Below are positions 6,825 to 27,318 of a stretch of 52,274 nucleotides of DNA, in pieces (positions within the stretch are counted from its first letter, which is position 1; each line of letters starts with the position of its first letter). Position numbers and translations under genes: made by a program. Source of the stretch: a virus (lineage: Duplodnaviria > Caudoviricetes); IMG/VR virus record IMGVR_UViG_3300021964_000099, positions 1-52,274 of that record. One strand, 5' to 3'. The notes under the pieces are model-generated. The model ran no database searches and had not been told where the DNA came from. It worked only from the letters and a program-made list of their open reading frames with translations.

Positions 6825-7244
6825 TTAATGTGTTACTGGCGATAAGATACTTTCGGGGTCTTCTACAACTCCAAGAATTTCATCATCATTTAGTAAGCGT
6901 AGTTCGCCGCCTTCAATGTTAAGACGTGAACCTGCGTATTTGGCAAATATTACCCAATCGTTTTTCTTGCACCATGCACCATTTGGAAAACGACTTTCAT
7001 CGTTATATGCATCTGGTCCTACCTTTAGTACAAGTCCAACATTAGCTGCAATTTGTGTTTCTTGTACTGTTTTATCAGACAAGATAATACCACCTTTGGT
7101 TTTGCCTTTACCTCTATGAGGTAAAATTAAAATCCTCCAACCTGTTGGTTCTGGTAGTTTAGATTCTTCTTTTTTCTTTTTTTCTTTTTTTACTTGTTTA
7201 GCACGCGCTTCTGCAACGTGTGTTGGTAAAATTAAGTTAGTCAT
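6825..7244 (-). CDS. groES: Co-chaperonin GroES (Cpn10) family protein
   Basis: PTGWRILI...KTKGGIIL...VLKVGP...KYAG...LLNDDEILG matches the Cpn10 signature. Confidence 0.85.
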   Translation of the reverse strand: MTNLILPTHVAEARAKQVKKEKKKKEESKLPEPTGWRILILPHRGKGKTKGGIILSDKTVQETQIAANVGLVLKVGPDAYNDESRFPNGAWCKKNDWVIFAKYAGSRLNIEGGELRLLNDDEILGVVEDPESILSPVTH

Positions 7245-21830: not shown

Positions 21831-22049
21831 ATGAGTGCATTTAAAGATTGGGTCATGGAAGAACAAGAAAACAGAGAAGATAGTTTTTTAGATAACTGCT
21901 ATGAGAAAGCATTTGTTATCTATAGCTACGATAAGAACCTACACCTAGCACACTTAGAGAACTCTGATATGCCCTTAAAAGACTTTTTAAAGGCCTATAA
22001 AGTGAAGATGAGAGAACTCGGAGACGATGAGGTGGTGTATCACATATGA
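21831..22049 (+). CDS. Hypothetical protein
   Basis: 72 aa, GGAG RBS. Confidence 0.6.
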   Translation: MSAFKDWVMEEQENREDSFLDNCYEKAFVIYSYDKNLHLAHLENSDMPLKDFLKAYKVKMRELGDDEVVYHI

Positions 22050-22213
22050 AAAAAGAAAAACTGTGTGACACCTGTAAAAAGGAGAAAGCTGTAATTGTAG
22101 AACATGATATGTTTTACTCTTGTGCTAAGTGTATGTGGAAACATGTTATGAAACAACAAAAGAAACTAGCAAAGCCTTTTGACCAAGCACGAAAGTGGAT
22201 TGAATCACAATGA
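22046..22213 (+). CDS. Small Zn-ribbon protein (55 aa; not in ORF track)
   Basis: CDTC...CAKC; ATGA overlaps at both ends. Confidence 0.55.
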   Translation: MKKEKLCDTCKKEKAVIVEHDMFYSCAKCMWKHVMKQQKKLAKPFDQARKWIESQ

Positions 22214-22482
22214 ATAAACCCTTGGTCCTTGTTACGTGGCTCGATGCCAAAGACGGGCAAACCGGGTGGCATTCAATCGAGGATATACAAAAAGAACAAC
22301 TAGCTATGTGCCATTCTACCGGGTGGTTGATGTATAAAGACGAGACAAAAATAATTATCATGGCAGACTATTCAGAATTTGACGACGACAAAGAGGGCGG
22401 ACGTCACATCACCATACCAACAGGGTGGGTGCAAACAATAACGTATCTCAAAGGAGATTACCAAGAAAAGGAGAATGTATGA
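22210..22482 (+). CDS. Conserved hypothetical phage protein
   Basis: V.W.DA....GW........C.S.GWL...IP.G.V pattern. Confidence 0.7.
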   Translation: MNKPLVLVTWLDAKDGQTGWHSIEDIQKEQLAMCHSTGWLMYKDETKIIIMADYSEFDDDKEGGRHITIPTGWVQTITYLKGDYQEKENV

Positions 22483-22649
22483 AAACAGGAGGTAATATAG
22501 TTAAAGTTACCATGAAAAAAAATGGTTTACATTTTAATAAAAGCAATGATTACGATGAAACACCTGCGGGTCAAGGTAAAAGATTTTATGCTAATATTTT
22601 AAAAAAGATGCAGAGAAAATTTAACCCAAAAAGAAAAAGGAAAAAATAA
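22479..22649 (+). CDS. Small basic protein
   Basis: MKTGGNIV... after AAGGAG; Lys-rich tail. Confidence 0.5.
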   Translation: MKTGGNIVKVTMKKNGLHFNKSNDYDETPAGQGKRFYANILKKMQRKFNPKRKRKK

Positions 22650-22650
22650 C

Positions 22651-23088
22651 ATGAACATGGATAGATTACTAGCTTCCGTAAAAAAACACGAAGGCTACAG
22701 AAACAAAGTATATCTCGATACCCTAGGTAAGAGAACCGTGGGCGTCGGGCATTTATGCGTCGAGGAGTTTTGGGAAGATGATAAGGAGTATGAAGAGAAG
22801 TTTCTTATGGATATCCTTGAAGCTGATCTACAAAACGCCATAAATGGCGCTGAGAGGCTTTGTAGCAACTGTCCCGATATAGATGACCTAGCAAAAGAAA
22901 TCATCGTAGAAATGGTATTTCAGCTAGGAGAAACAGGGGTCAGTAAATTTAAGAACATGTGGAAAGCCTTAGAACAAGATCCACCCGAATATGCTACCGC
23001 GGCGATGGAAATGTTGGACTCACGTTGGGCAAAACAAACACCCAACAGAGCCGAAGCAATGAGTGCGGAGATGGCAGGCATTGGCTAA
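22651..23088 (+). CDS. Lysozyme/endolysin (T4-lysozyme-like, GH24)
   Basis: HEG.R..VY.DT.G..TVG.GH catalytic E/D/T pattern; C-terminal DSRWAKQTPNRA. Confidence 0.85.
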   Translation: MNMDRLLASVKKHEGYRNKVYLDTLGKRTVGVGHLCVEEFWEDDKEYEEKFLMDILEADLQNAINGAERLCSNCPDIDDLAKEIIVEMVFQLGETGVSKFKNMWKALEQDPPEYATAAMEMLDSRWAKQTPNRAEAMSAEMAGIG

Positions 23089-23209
23089 ATACGTCTGGCA
23101 GTGGTATTGGGGGTACGACTACCTTGGTAACAAAGTAAAAAATATATACTTTGGCCCGAGACTTGATTGGATGAAGCTATTTACAAAACGAAAGAAGAAA
23201 AAGAAATGA
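23081..23209 (+). CDS. Small aromatic/basic peptide (42 aa, TTG start; not in ORF track)
   Basis: MAKYVWQWYWGYDYLGNK...KRKKKKK; overlaps both neighbours. Confidence 0.4.
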   Translation: MAKYVWQWYWGYDYLGNKVKNIYFGPRLDWMKLFTKRKKKKK

Positions 23210-23307
23210 AAATTCTCATACTTACAGGACTAGTTGCGATAATTATTATATTGTTGCTTATTGCAGTGATGGTTTATGCAATTGGTGAAAAAATATCTGA
23301 AAAATAA
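23206..23307 (+). CDS. Single-TM micropeptide (33 aa; not in ORF track)
   Basis: MKILILTGLVAIIIILLLIAVMVYAIGEKISEK. Confidence 0.45.
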   Translation: MKILILTGLVAIIIILLLIAVMVYAIGEKISEK

Positions 23308-23370
23308 CTTGATCCCATATTGTATTTAGGTGTATAGCTAGAAGCTTACCCCCAAAACAAAGGAGATTAT

Positions 23371-23535
23371 ATGACGGTAGAAGAATTAAAGGATGTTATT
23401 GTGTACTTACAAGGCAGAATAGAAGAATTAGAATCAAAAAAATTATGTGAATGCGCGGAAGAACCTGTAAAGCCTACCGTTCAGTATGTGACGAACTACG
23501 ATGAGGACGAGGATTGTATTGCGTGTTCAGCGTAG
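23371..23535 (+). CDS. 54-aa coiled-coil protein with RNR-alpha-like C-terminal CxxC tail (not in ORF track)
   Basis: AAGGAG RBS; MTVEELKDVIVYLQGRIEELESKKLCECAEEPVKPTVQYVTNYDEDEDCIACSA. Confidence 0.6.
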   Translation: MTVEELKDVIVYLQGRIEELESKKLCECAEEPVKPTVQYVTNYDEDEDCIACSA

Positions 23536-23686
23536 ATCTATCTTGGTTCCATTGTTGTACACGACCCCTCCAGTAATCTTTTTCTTTACGGTCAATTTTT
23601 TCCCAACCCATTTTTTTTACACTTTCTCTATCAAATCGGTAGCGTAAGTGTTTTGCTTGTTTATCGTATTTTGTTTCTTCAGCCAT
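23474..23686 (-). CDS. Hypothetical protein
   Basis: Probable start MAEETK at 23686; 3' end overlaps the convergent 23371 ORF. Confidence 0.5.
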   Translation of the reverse strand: MAEETKYDKQAKHLRYRFDRESVKKMGWEKIDRKEKDYWRGRVQQWNQDRSTLNTQYNPRPHRSSSHTER

Positions 23687-23885
23687 CAAAGTTTTCCGGG
23701 TTTTTAAATTCTCTTTCGTGTTGCTCCCACAAACGGCGACCTTCGCCGTAAGAATATAACCATTCATTCACAGTAAATTCTTTCGTGGTCCCGTCTGTGT
23801 AGGACACAATCACTTTATCTTGTACTCGTCTTACTGCACTAACTATTCGTTGTTTTTTCATTAGCTTTCGCGATCTGCTCTGCAA
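23679..23885 (-). CDS. Hypothetical protein
   Basis: ORF track; part of an overlapping minus-strand chain. Confidence 0.55.
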   Translation of the reverse strand: MQSRSRKLMKKQRIVSAVRRVQDKVIVSYTDGTTKEFTVNEWLYSYGEGRRLWEQHEREFKNPENFDG

Positions 23886-24126
23886 AGTAAACTGATTTTA
23901 TATCTTTGACAGCATCTTTAATGTGTACTTTCTCCAATATAATGTTCTTTAACTCTTCAATATGATCTGCATGATCATGATCTTTACTCGTAATGTATGC
24001 CGGTGCATTTGTCAAAAGCACTTCTTTAGCTTCAAGTTCGGATAACTCTCCACTTAATTTATTCAAAACGGCTGTATACAGCGCTGCCTTGATTCTTCTA
24101 TCATTAGTGTCTGACATCTTTATCAT
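23839..24126 (-). CDS. Hypothetical helical protein
   Basis: ORF track; DH.DHIEEL motif. Confidence 0.6.
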   Translation of the reverse strand: MIKMSDTNDRRIKAALYTAVLNKLSGELSELEAKEVLLTNAPAYITSKDHDHADHIEELKNIILEKVHIKDAVKDIKSVYFAEQIAKANEKTTNS

Positions 24127-24280
24127 CTCCGTTTTTTAGTGTTGGTCTATCTTGTTCTTTATCAACTAAATAACGTATAAAAGAAGCCATGGACATATAG
24201 TTTTGTTCCGCTATAGGCTTGGCTCGTTTATAAGTGTCAATGCTGATCGCGACAGATTTATACTTCTTAATGTCGGTCAT
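24104..24280 (-). CDS. Ribbon-helix-helix-like transcriptional regulator (58 aa; not in ORF track)
   Basis: MTDIKKYKSVAISIDTYKRAKPIAEQNYMSMASFIRYLVDKE: strand-helix-helix pattern of Arc/CopG; GGAG RBS; palindrome upstream. Confidence 0.6.
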   Translation of the reverse strand: MTDIKKYKSVAISIDTYKRAKPIAEQNYMSMASFIRYLVDKEQDRPTLKNGDDKDVRH

Positions 24281-24318
24281 TTCTTTCTCCTATAAATGTG
24301 GTATGTTTATTCATACAA

Positions 24319-24353
24319 GCCCATACATATGGGATTTTGGCAGATTGTCAAGG
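24319..24353 (-). promoter_or_regulatory. Promoter with CCCAT-N5-ATGGG palindrome upstream of the RHH gene
   Basis: TTGACA on the - strand at about 24351-24346; CCCATACATATGGG palindrome at 24320-24333. Confidence 0.5.
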
Positions 24354-24356
24354 AAA

Positions 24357-24938
24357 TTAGGTAGCTTTGTTATTATTATAGTATTCCCAAATTTGTTTTG
24401 ATTTAAATATTTCTGGGTATTTTTGAAACAAACCAAGAGTAACAGTAAGTAGTTTTTTTGTATACTCCGGGTCAATCGCGTAGTTTTCTAAGGTTTCAAT
24501 AATAAGAAAAACATCTACATTATCAGTTATATATTGTTGTAAACGTAAATCTCTGTACTCAACAAAGGCACTAGATGCATTGAGTAAGGCAATGTAATCA
24601 GCAACACTCTCACATCTGTTTGGGTACTTTTTTAGTAGTACATTACTGTTTTTTGACTTCATATGAGGCTGTGTGCTGTCTGTTTCGATGATTCCATAGT
24701 AGTTATTACCCTCTATTGCAAAACGAGAGCGTCCCCAATCGGATTCTAGTATGGCTTGTGCTACACTAATCGCTACTACAACCCTGTACCGTGGTTCAAT
24801 AACCGCGTTATTGAGTACAGTACACTCGGCTATACCTTGCACAAACTGATCTTGCGGGTTACCATCATAGTTAAATGTAAAACCATTCAGTAATGGATTA
24901 CATAATAAAAATAATGTCGCGCATAACTCTTTAAACAT
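24357..24938 (-). CDS. Glucosaminidase (GH73/Bax-like) peptidoglycan hydrolase with N-terminal signal
   Basis: AQAILES.WG.SRFA..GNN.YGI...YA.DP.Y. Confidence 0.8.
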   Translation of the reverse strand: MFKELCATLFLLCNPLLNGFTFNYDGNPQDQFVQGIAECTVLNNAVIEPRYRVVVAISVAQAILESDWGRSRFAIEGNNYYGIIETDSTQPHMKSKNSNVLLKKYPNRCESVADYIALLNASSAFVEYRDLRLQQYITDNVDVFLIIETLENYAIDPEYTKKLLTVTLGLFQKYPEIFKSKQIWEYYNNNKAT

Positions 24939-25212
24939 CGTCGTCCTTCTCCATAAATACGTATTCGACCTTTAATTTTATCTGCTCCGGGGTCCGTTGT
25001 CGATGTATTTTTGTCCCCGGTTTCCAAGATTGACGGTAATTGGTCGTTTTTACATCGATTAATCTTACCTCTCCTGTCTTTTCATTGACTATTACCATGT
25101 CAATTGGACCTTTAGGTGACACATTACGGAACACCCAGTAACCTTCTTTTAAAAATTTAATCGTCGCTTTTAGTTCGTTTACGTCGCCTACTTTTTGTTT
25201 ATCTCTCCCCAT
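24931..25212 (-). CDS. Small PD-(D/E)XK nuclease
   Basis: GD..E......L..GY.VF.N....GP.D.......IDVKT. Confidence 0.65.
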   Translation of the reverse strand: MGRDKQKVGDVNELKATIKFLKEGYWVFRNVSPKGPIDMVIVNEKTGEVRLIDVKTTNYRQSWKPGTKIHRQRTPEQIKLKVEYVFMEKDDDV

Positions 25213-27068
25213 GAGGGTCCTATCTCTGCATCAACTTTCAAAGGTACTTTAAGTTCTACGGTATTCTCCATAACTTCTTTGATCCGTGTTGCTTGTTCCG
25301 GGTTCTCAATAGAACAGTTTAATTCATCGTGTACCTGTATGTGAGAAACAATGCCCTCTTCATATAGATCAACCATCGCCTTCTTTGTCATATCAGCCGA
25401 TGATCCTTGTATCAATCTGTTCAATGCTTTGTATGTCCATGCTCTCTTTAGATCACGTCCATATTCTTTTTCTGCTTCCCACAGTGGCAATGCTTTATGT
25501 ATACCAAATGCTCTTGGCTCCCATAAATCAAAACGACACTTACGGCCTAGCAGTGTGCGTAAGAAACCAACATTATCAGCTTTGCGTGTTGCTTGTTCCA
25601 TGAGCTGTTTTACAAAGGGAACGTTCGCATGAAACTTAGCGAATAAATCTTCGGTCTCGTCTCTATCTAAACCTAACTCGCTAGATAGTTTACCTTTACC
25701 CATACCGTACATCATACCAAGATTGATTGTCTTGGCTGTACGCCGGTCAATGCCGGCCATATCGGCGACAGCTTGATGAAAGTCGGGATCTTCTGTCTTA
25801 TAAGACTCGATGACCTCGTCGGCGCCTTTCAAGCCACCGCCGGTAAGCGCGGCGAAGTGGACAAGAACTCTCGGTTCCTGTTGGCTATAGTCAAATGACC
25901 CCCACTTGCAACCCTCGTCTGGGACGAAGATTGATCGTATCAACGGCCCGATATCTTTATTACGTGCAGGAATTTGTTGTAGGTTTGGATTACTATAACT
26001 GAACCGTCCTGTGACTGTTCCTCCTGTTTCACCACGCATTTGATTGATATCGGCGTGAATTCTACTGTGCGAAGAGTGTGTTAATATTGTGTCAATAAAT
26101 GTCGTGCGTGCTTTATTGAACTCTCTTGCTTGTACAACCATTTTTGCTAATGGATGTTTATGTGTTGTTAAAAAGTTTTTATCAAACTTTGGTTGCCCGG
26201 ACTTCTCAGTGCGCTCATATTTAATATTTAATTTATCAAATGCTTTTGCTACACTTACTGCGGCCCAGATATCGACATCAACACCCGTATCTTTTTTAAT
26301 TTGTGTCAGTAATGTTGTTTCTTTTTTCTGTAAATCTTTTTTTATTCTATCTGCTTTATCTAAATCAACACGTACCCCTTTTGATTTCATATCTAATAGA
26401 CATGGAAAGAGTCGTGTCTCTAAATCAAATATACTTGATAACTCTTGCTTAATTATTTCTACTTTAAAATACTGCCATAATCTTAATGTTAAGTCTGCAT
26501 CTTGTTCTGCATAAGGACCAACATACATTGCCGGAAGTTTATACATCTGTGCTTTTGCATCAACGCCCCACTCCTTCGCGGCTTCGTATAATAAAGCTTC
26601 TGACTTTGTTTCTTTGAGATAATCTTTACCAAGTTCATTTAATGAATATCTAAATCTGTTTTCATCTATAAGTGGCGCGGCAATCAAGGTATCTATAATT
26701 TTACCTTTTACTTCTACACCCCACCAACGTAACCACCCTACATCGTAAGCGGCGTTATGAAATACTTTATCACATGGTAAATCCATGATCTTTTGTACTT
26801 GACGCTTGAGTATATTCTCGTCAAAGTTACCACCACCCTCATGTCGTATAGGGAAGTAACCTTTCCAACCTTCTACAGCAATAGCAACACCGGCTATGTA
26901 GCCATTGTTGATAGCCCAACCCGGACCTTTTGTTTTAATGTCTGGATCGTATGTCTCTAAGTCAACAGCTATTTCTTTTGCTTCGGATAGATTAGGAACG
27001 GTCTCTGGTGGTGTCCACTCACTCGGTGTTTGAAATAGAGGTATCTGTGTCATCTTCTTTCCTATCAT
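25188..27068 (-). CDS. polA: DNA polymerase family A with 3'-5' exonuclease domain (Leu762 type)
   Basis: Exo DLET/HNAAYD/YA..D; TGRFS...PNLQQIP; DYSQQEPR; RRTAKTINLGMMYG; IQGSSAD; VHDEL. Confidence 0.95.
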   Translation of the reverse strand: MIGKKMTQIPLFQTPSEWTPPETVPNLSEAKEIAVDLETYDPDIKTKGPGWAINNGYIAGVAIAVEGWKGYFPIRHEGGGNFDENILKRQVQKIMDLPCDKVFHNAAYDVGWLRWWGVEVKGKIIDTLIAAPLIDENRFRYSLNELGKDYLKETKSEALLYEAAKEWGVDAKAQMYKLPAMYVGPYAEQDADLTLRLWQYFKVEIIKQELSSIFDLETRLFPCLLDMKSKGVRVDLDKADRIKKDLQKKETTLLTQIKKDTGVDVDIWAAVSVAKAFDKLNIKYERTEKSGQPKFDKNFLTTHKHPLAKMVVQAREFNKARTTFIDTILTHSSHSRIHADINQMRGETGGTVTGRFSYSNPNLQQIPARNKDIGPLIRSIFVPDEGCKWGSFDYSQQEPRVLVHFAALTGGGLKGADEVIESYKTEDPDFHQAVADMAGIDRRTAKTINLGMMYGMGKGKLSSELGLDRDETEDLFAKFHANVPFVKQLMEQATRKADNVGFLRTLLGRKCRFDLWEPRAFGIHKALPLWEAEKEYGRDLKRAWTYKALNRLIQGSSADMTKKAMVDLYEEGIVSHIQVHDELNCSIENPEQATRIKEVMENTVELKVPLKVDAEIGPSWGEINKK

Positions 27069-27318
27069 TTATCTCACCCGCAATCGCCGCATATCCCGCC
27101 ATGTCTATGTAACAATCTTTTGTAGGTCTGTGTTTTAATCGTGCTACTTTTACAAGTAGCATACATATAGCTACATCGTGTGCAGATATTTCATAATCTA
27201 AATAACCACTCCATAACCTTGCGATGTTTTCGTGGTTTTGATATTTATCACCGTAGTCGTGTTGACGTTGACCAGTAACAATCTTTGCCGCCGTATCTAA
27301 ATATTCTCTAGTCTTCAT
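27019..27318 (-). CDS. DUF6378-like protein (nucleotide-hydrolase-like helical domain)
   Basis: L..A..IV.G.R..DYG...N...IA..WS.YL....DVA.CM.L.K.AR.....D.Y.D.AGYAA. Confidence 0.65.
   Translation of the reverse strand: MKTREYLDTAAKIVTGQRQHDYGDKYQNHENIARLWSGYLDYEISAHDVAICMLLVKVARLKHRPTKDCYIDMAGYAAIAGEINDRKEDDTDTSISNTE

Follow-up and report, generated by a model that had tools for sequence, protein, structure and literature searches.

The locus at positions 23,371 to 23,535 of the window, by which we mean the whole 52,274-bp stretch of DNA that was analysed (an IMG/VR virus record with a CheckV completeness of 83%), raises the question of what a phage might do with a stand-alone protein of 54 residues whose C-terminus reads like that of an RNR alpha subunit. 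The answer that we favour, tentatively and in the knowledge that it may well be wrong, is that the protein is a detached RNR-type dithiol tail acting on the host RNR or on its reductant, a function that we infer from the sequence.

Whether the locus holds a gene at all can be answered firmly. The reading frame opens with an ATG at 23371 and closes with a TAG at 23533-23535, and both the frame and its AAGGAG ribosome-binding site, which an earlier reading of the sequence alone had picked out, are borne out at the same coordinates:

23371..23535, plus strand: coding sequence of the 54-aa protein, stop included, supported by the ORF list, by relatives and by codon statistics
23360..23365, plus strand: Shine-Dalgarno sequence AAGGAG, 5 nt before the ATG and conserved in the loci of relatives

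A word-indexed search gave 94 candidate protein clusters, 93 of which are related to the 54-aa protein and none of which carries a name beyond "hypothetical protein", and in three separate scans, viral contigs yielded 35, 64 and 6 loci, respectively. These relatives make up about 90 viral loci of one uncultured clade of marine and estuarine phages. The ORF is under purifying selection at the protein level: among 28 distinct coding sequences, the columns that vary number 15, 14 and 38 at codon positions 1, 2 and 3 (of 66 codons), and a mean pN of 0.057 compares with a pS of 0.40 over 378 pairs, for a mean pN/pS of 0.14. Length differences among relatives are all in frame, with every indel a multiple of three; all three stop codons are used within the family, and each invariant residue of the tail is written with at least two synonymous codons in the 42 distinct nucleotide versions. 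The start codon, the Shine-Dalgarno sequence and an element further upstream are also conserved across loci. The 54-aa ORF is a real gene, far beyond what chance would produce. Contigs of relatives assembled from RNA libraries span it in three of four runs (X15, X16 and X18, from two studies), although these data are strand-blind and may include DNA carry-over.

The protein falls into four stretches, as judged from an alignment of 33 rows that reaches down to 40% identity (A3) and from an AlphaFold2 model:

23377..23448, plus strand: amphipathic helix, residues 3-26, with pLDDT above 90 (blocks of 91 and 93) and support from A3
23446..23454, plus strand: CxC (C26-E-C28) that closes the helix, invariant in 33/33 rows of A3
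23455..23487, plus strand: variable linker rich in Pro, Glu and Thr (a Pro/Val/Thr linker), with pLDDT of 53-66 and in-frame indels
23488..23532, plus strand: invariant C-terminal peptide VTNYDEDEDCIACSA, with an RNR-alpha-like end, from A3 and with pLDDT below 50

The residues that are invariant in A3 are M1, Y12, L13, L20, E21, C26, C28, N42, Y43, D44, E45, C49, C52 and S53. Thus, the CEC at residues 26-28, the Pro/Val linker and the C-terminal CxxC end (YDEDEDCIACSA-stop) described earlier are all present, and the homologues do conserve the terminal CxxC, C49 and C52 being unchanged in all 33 rows. The coiled coil had a more mixed outcome: a helix is indeed predicted at residues 3-26, with hydrophobic residues at positions 6, 10, 13, 17 and 20 that fit a short zipper, and its pairing into a coiled coil is putative. 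The helix is probably a handle for self-association (dimerisation); a homodimer prediction with two A3 copies and two Zn scored 0.32, short of the mark of 0.42, and carries no weight on dimerisation or zinc. The CxC is encoded in 12 codon versions among 90 loci. The linker spans 11 residues in the window protein and up to 31 in relatives, and the spacing from CxC to CxxC varies from 20 to about 40 residues. The family always ends in TNYDE-[DE]3-C-x-x-C-S-[A/S/G]-stop, with two residues between the CxxC and the stop in all 42 distinct nucleotide versions; at the first x of the CxxC, 28 of these have Ile, 12 have Leu and 2 have Pro, and the second x is most often Ser (17), Thr (13) or Ala (9). 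AlphaFold2 places no structure after the helix, with pLDDT below 50 for residues 40-46 and 48-54, so that the tail is predicted to be disordered, and the model shows one helix only, with neither strands nor a compact cluster of Cys. With 14 acidic and 5 basic residues, and with no signal peptide, lipobox or membrane span on reading the sequence, the product appears to be a small, very acidic cytoplasmic protein.

Homology searches connected the family mostly to itself. Neither Pfam nor NCBIfam offered a family for the 54-aa protein at E values up to 1 (DUF6472, HSP33, PF02867, thioredoxin and zinc fingers included), tblastn against phages at E values up to 10 matched no RNR, sequence searches of the PDB with the profile and with the tail returned chance-level rows and no RNR, and the ESM Atlas contained only the family's own clusters. 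An HMM search of 1.84 billion representatives gave 24 matches and no RNR; 23 of these were short proteins, the 13 examined all being members of the 54-aa family or fragments of them, and the remaining match was a repetitive protein of 574 aa (E = 2.3e-5) that does not have such a tail. A search for fused forms among longer proteins found only two, of 100-104 aa, and none with an RNR barrel, while a pattern scan of genome contigs gave 19 stretches with no relative among them. There is also no sign of a thioredoxin, glutaredoxin or NrdH fold, given that there is no family match and that the model consists of one helix without strands. A genome scan for YDE-acidic-CxxC yielded at least 120 stretches, and the 80 examined included 57 distinct ORFs with the layout of DUF6472; the three of these ORFs that were scanned all match PF20076. 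At least five of the matches, from Bacteroidota, are out-of-frame readings inside another conserved gene segment. Lachnospiraceae DUF6472 proteins of about 59 aa carry the motif as NY-x-YDE-acidic-CxxC (L094-L173, among the matches listed).

Since the homology searches found no RNR, RNR alpha ends were sampled from genomes instead. The best 30 class I alpha matches from 151 Bacteroidota genomes, a phylum that may not be that of the host, all end in CxxC, and 24 of the 30 end in acidic-CxxC-[G/S][S/G/A]-stop, for example ...PEDCEMCGS, ...DACEACSS and ...DPDCMACSA. A 701-aa NrdE-like alpha from a Sphingobacterium genome, whose closest phage relatives are NrdE genes adjoining nrdI, ends in ...IEDCVSCSA. 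Among phage enzymes, ...DGCISCSA closes the NrdE-like alpha of Sphingomonas phage PAU, and ...CLSCVV closes two NrdE proteins from Bacillus phages; all seven NrdE-like tails examined share C[IVL]SC with a further two residues before the stop. The 54-aa family ends in ...EECISCSA, ...EECVSCSA or ...EECLSCSA, and therefore the last six residues can be identical in the two groups, as they are for CISCSA and CVSCSA. Such an end is far from common: acidic-CxxC-two small residues-stop closes none of the 1,924 six-frame ORFs of at least 50 aa in 594 kb of unrelated bacterial loci, whereas in RNR loci it closes 26 of 751 ORFs, every one of them an RNR alpha. In Pseudomonadota, most of the alphas sampled end differently, in ...CEACQ (long type), in ...CxxxxCK[I/L] (the type of about 765 aa) or without Cys (a class II-like type), and therefore the acidic-CxxC-two small end is specific to an RNR subclass and lineage. 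A scan of 401 Pseudomonadota genomes for [DE][DE]CxxC-x-A-stop gave eight matches, compared with three in a reversed control, and no real protein; a true stop follows the pattern in three matches, each of them a stop-to-stop frame of 16-18 aa.

The likeness is short. An hhalign comparison with the NrdE tails aligned the 11 terminal columns only, with a probability of 4% and E = 0.01 (one of its seven rows, L247, is a wrong-frame ORF, which makes the comparison weaker), and neither the TNYDE block nor the helix has a counterpart in the RNR tails examined. Thus, the resemblance that the sequence-only reading had noticed holds at the level of a motif, where, judged on sequence, it is real, specific over the last six to eight residues and unlikely to be due to chance, but it does not extend further: by sequence comparison, homology to RNR tails is not demonstrable beyond about 11 residues. 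The accompanying suggestion of a link to NrdR boxes finds no support, as two matches with up to three mismatches occur in the window (48934 and 50958) where 1.97 are expected for the NrdR-box consensus, and none lies near the gene.

How could such a protein work as a detached tail? Its end, predicted to be disordered and made up of acidic residues, a CxxC, two small residues and a free carboxylate, copies the end of a class I alpha subunit, most closely one of the NrdE type. The host thioredoxin, glutaredoxin or NrdH system would reduce this tail peptide, and the reduced tail would serve as an additional shuttle through disulfide exchange at the RNR active site. It might instead be a decoy, occupying either the reductant or the active site. 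In this layout, the helix ending in CxC would be the probable handle for self-association; a flexible linker that differs in length among relatives follows, and then the unchanging C-terminal peptide, which is predicted to be disordered. That the protein dimerises, that it is redox-active, what it pairs with and which way it acts are all inferred. A more specific version, which we consider unlikely, is that of a self-associating scaffold of RNR tails that is charged by the host NrdH or thioredoxin and feeds class I RNR in trans, raising the supply of dNTPs. Such a scaffold, which would amount to an auxiliary metabolic gene without an enzyme, would bypass the rate-limiting excursion of the tethered tail in a phage that encodes no reductase, and its CxC could act either as another dithiol in the relay or as a latch of the zinc or redox type.

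Several observations agree with a detached tail. The end motif is specific to RNR in the samples described above (24/30 Bacteroidota alphas, 0/1,924 control ORFs, and RNR alpha in 26/26 cases at RNR loci), the tail is predicted to be disordered behind a linker of variable length, and the distance of two residues from CxxC to stop never changes, even though synonymous changes are seen at every invariant residue. Known tails behave in a compatible manner. According to the available text of two papers, CXXC is found in 1,737/2,022 class I RNR sequences (PMC9531940) and class I tails are disordered with a CXXC consensus (PMC9669993), which confirms the background assumed in the sequence-only reading, that class I tails are flexible and carry CxxC. 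CXC is itself an RNR tail motif, present in 14/24 complete class O RNRs, a phage-rich clade, according to what is accessible of PMC9531940. Re-reduction of the tail has been argued to limit RNR turnover, and a second reductant route raises RNR activity up to 3-fold, as stated in the part of PMC4078304 available to us.

Other observations weigh against it. The likeness to RNR does not reach beyond about 11 terminal columns, no RNR appeared in the HMM, PDB or phage tblastn searches, the invariant TNYDE lacks a counterpart in the RNR tails examined, and a Zn(Cys)4 site would account for the invariant CxC no less well. The window, at 83% completeness, contains no match to PF02867 (the RNR large-subunit domain), nor do five related viral contigs, and none of the thioredoxin, glutaredoxin or NrdH families is found in it (61 ORFs by Pfam, 86 by PHROGs); NrdR-like boxes are not enriched either. 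The identity of the host adds a further difficulty. SD-like motifs precede 35 of 60 window genes, compared with 7.6% of random 17-mers, and Bacteroidota seldom use SD sequences. Therefore, the window is a poor fit to a host from Bacteroidota, the phylum in which this class Ia form of the motif is common, to the extent that SD use is as rare there as supposed. Pseudomonadota alphas, in turn, mostly end otherwise, and the 401 genomes hold no real [DE][DE]CxxC-x-A protein.

With respect to known systems, the family has in common with class I RNR alpha tails (NrdA and especially class Ib NrdE) the disordered acidic end, the CxxC, the two small residues and the free C-terminus, but it lacks the catalytic ten-stranded barrel (PF02867), with no fused form found, and it adds a helix, a CxC and the family-specific TNYDE block. 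The CXC dithiol, often with an acidic middle residue, and the occurrence in marine phages are shared with class O RNRs, in which, unlike in the 54-aa protein, the motifs lie within a full alpha subunit (a comparison by description only, from the available portion of PMC9531940). As for the proposed role, phages are already known to carry whole RNR genes and redoxins, so that a tail-only copy of 54 residues would be, if true, a much cheaper manipulation. The thioredoxin of T4 is a phage-encoded redoxin and a precedent for tuning RNR through electron supply. Small RNR regulators such as yeast Sml1 are a precedent for tuning RNR through small binding proteins, to judge from the accessible text of PMC3483043. 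Redoxins are folded, however, and Sml1-type proteins are unrelated disordered inhibitors, and none of these copies the RNR tail itself as the 54-aa protein is proposed to do; we found no description of a free-standing RNR tail protein in the open-access literature.

The most serious competitor, which we regard as nearly as likely as the detached tail, is that the four invariant Cys of the CxC and CxxC bind one Zn and that the product is a zinc-clasped acidic mini-protein unrelated to RNR. The site would form either within one chain, with the linker as a loop, or between chains, the likeness to RNR would be coincidental, and the protein might, for example, bind or inhibit another host protein or mimic DNA. 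The invariance of all four Cys in 33/33 rows down to 40% identity speaks for it. The same set, CXC plus CXXC, jointly binds Zn in the Zn(Cys)4 centre of Hsp33, where it also works as a redox switch (PMC6021785), and in the Lck-CD4/CD8 clasp (PMC7355011), as far as the available text of these papers goes; the family shares this pattern of Cys but has no sequence relation to either (Pfam, E up to 1), has a variable Cys spacing, and its metal binding is putative. DUF6472 (PF20076, Lachnospiraceae) points in the same direction, as it shares with the family an 11-residue motif, YDE-acidic-CxxC (hhalign aligned 11 columns with a probability of 59%), that is the second half of a CxxC...CxxC pair; in DUF6472, however, the motif is internal, in the arrangement CxxC...CxxC...C, and the helix-linker-tail layout is missing. 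The strong net negative charge also fits, being typical of small phage inhibitor proteins. On the other hand, the AlphaFold2 model shows no compact Cys cluster and has pLDDT below 50 for residues 40-54, the spacing between the Cys pairs ranges from 20 to about 40 residues, and no zinc-finger or Hsp33 family matches at E values up to 1. A zinc site leaves unexplained why a constant CxxC with two small residues, identical to RNR ends and seen in 0/1,924 background ORFs, closes the protein. If it is instead a zinc-clasped inhibitor, we are dealing with an ordinary small phage protein that has a misleading end.

The detached tail, if true, would have broader implications: the phage would manipulate either nucleotide supply or the thiol redox balance of the host, and RNR tails would be shown to be portable modules. 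Marine and estuarine viromes contain the family in abundance (93 clusters), and as it has no annotation, a function would put a label on many "hypothetical" genes. The 54-aa protein would also be a simple reagent for the recognition of RNR tails by NrdH, thioredoxin and the active site.

Upstream of the gene, the sequence-only reading had noted a promoter-like sequence, and the following elements were found there:

23309..23314, plus strand: TTGATC, a -35-like box, kept as TTGATC, TTGAAA or TTGCTT
23333..23338, plus strand: TATAGC (TATAAC in divergent relatives), a -10-like box, 18 nt after the first box
23336..23346, plus strand: palindrome AGCT-AGA-AGCT overlapping the -10-like box, a possible operator or weak hairpin

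The layout consists of TTGATC, a variable spacer, TTTAGGTGTATAGC..., and then the small palindrome and the strong ribosome site. The bipartite element is kept in 89/89 loci with enough upstream sequence (48 distinct upstream sequences), with a spacer that varies, it occurs once in the window, and the intergenic stretch 23308-23370 is better conserved than the flanking coding sequence. The claim therefore stands as far as the conserved TTGATC-18 nt-TATAGC is concerned, but the element matches the sigma-70 consensus at only 8/12 positions and is not listed by a generic sigma-70 scan of the region, which found five sites where 7.0 are expected. It has the appearance of a promoter dedicated to this gene, perhaps with an operator. 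The palindrome is replaced in divergent loci by AAC-GGAAA-GTT, with both sides changed, and its symmetry is broken in other loci. RNA folding was not significant for 23300-23385 (z = -1.47) or for the 3' region, a scan found no intrinsic terminator, and Rfam gave nothing relevant within 22000-25000. A 58-aa ORF at 24104-24280 on the minus strand has, on reading its sequence, the look of a ribbon-helix-helix DNA-binding protein (Pfam has no match at E<=0.001), and its product could be a candidate binder of the palindrome.

The neighbours of the gene suggest another explanation, an improbable one in our view, namely that the 54-aa protein is an accessory of a lysis cassette, such as a protein that controls the small membrane peptide or the lysozyme from the cytoplasm:

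22651..23088, plus strand: phage lysozyme of 145 aa, the upstream neighbour (PF00959, E = 8.8e-9)
23063..23209, plus strand: ORF of 48 aa in which Trp and Tyr are frequent and which ends in poly-Lys, conserved in most loci
23206..23307, plus strand: 33-aa peptide with one membrane span, joined to the 48-aa ORF by an ATGA overlap
23474..23686, minus strand: convergent basic ORF of 70 aa that runs antisense, at its 3' end, to the final 62 nt of the 54-aa gene

The order of lysozyme, Trp-rich ORF, one-span peptide and 54-aa gene, which is the main argument for a lysis accessory, is kept in every one of the 35 close loci and in the majority of divergent loci. The lysozyme lies upstream in most loci that reach that far, a GH108 enzyme taking its place in L040, and the 48-aa and 33-aa ORFs are candidates for unannotated lysis components, with no family found for either (for the former, in PHROGs and NCBIfam). 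Nevertheless, relatives carry inserted, unrelated genes that separate the one-span peptide from the 54-aa gene, including ones with a LexA DNA-binding domain (PF01726), zf-CHCC (PF10276) and FeS_assembly_P/DUF59 (PF01883); inserted or swapped genes lie at L041:7712-7909, L054:1078-1284, L040:5524-5814 and L040:4628-5134. Moreover, the Trp-rich ORF is missing in the L074 group, and the 54-aa gene has its own conserved promoter-like element. These insertions, together with the lysozyme swap, the loss of the Trp-rich ORF and the promoter-like element, suggest that the gene is its own unit and not an integral lysis gene. The lysis families of PHROGs give no match, and the lack of a signal peptide, lipobox or membrane span in the sequence speaks against this role as well. 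A fusion of the one-span peptide with the 54-aa ORF by read-through, the two being in the same frame, was rejected because two in-frame stops (TAA and TAG) separate them. The surroundings contain two cell-wall hydrolases on opposite strands, the PF00959 lysozyme at 22651-23088 and a PF01832 glucosaminidase at 24357-24938; the lysozyme contains a CSNC motif, a CxxC that is not kept in every relative (it is absent in L074).

The 54-aa gene is always the last of its plus-strand block and faces a convergent gene. Antisense overlap does not explain the conservation of the tail, because the tail is equally invariant where the match to the 70-aa ORF lies more than 100 nt downstream (L024, L025, L028 and others), and the C-terminal extension of the 70-aa ORF in the window is probably incidental, since the ORF stops earlier in other loci. 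Two weaker explanations can be treated briefly. The 54-aa protein, helical in its N-terminal half and ending in a conserved stretch that contains Cys, is laid out like a precursor peptide, so that it might be the helical leader and Cys-containing core of a modified peptide; we think this very improbable, as no maturase-like gene (radical SAM, cyclodehydratase or similar) is found in the window by Pfam and PHROGs or beside the gene in the relatives examined. Hardly credible is a non-functional 3' remnant of a lost nrdE or nrdA, or an ORF conserved only through its antisense gene, which the six residues identical to NrdE ends and the 62-nt overlap might suggest, given a pN/pS of 0.14 over the whole ORF with third positions varying most, indels that are all in frame, a conserved start codon, SD and upstream element, and a tail that is invariant where the antisense ORF does not overlap.

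Returning to the source of the gene, the DNA polymerase A of the window shares at most 59% identity with its counterpart in phage 023Pt_psg01 and 53% with the one in Pelagibacter phage HTVC023P, and the window therefore represents an uncultured relative of that podovirus group. Near-identical DNA is present in estuary and marine metagenomes, and DNA of the 54-aa family was found in 12 further studies, not counting one run that may be the source and two that repeat a single sample. As in HTVC023P-type phages, the window also encodes a GroES-like co-chaperonin (phrog_3188) and a DUF6378 protein (6825-7244 and 27022-27318, both on the minus strand), genes that are ordinary for this group.
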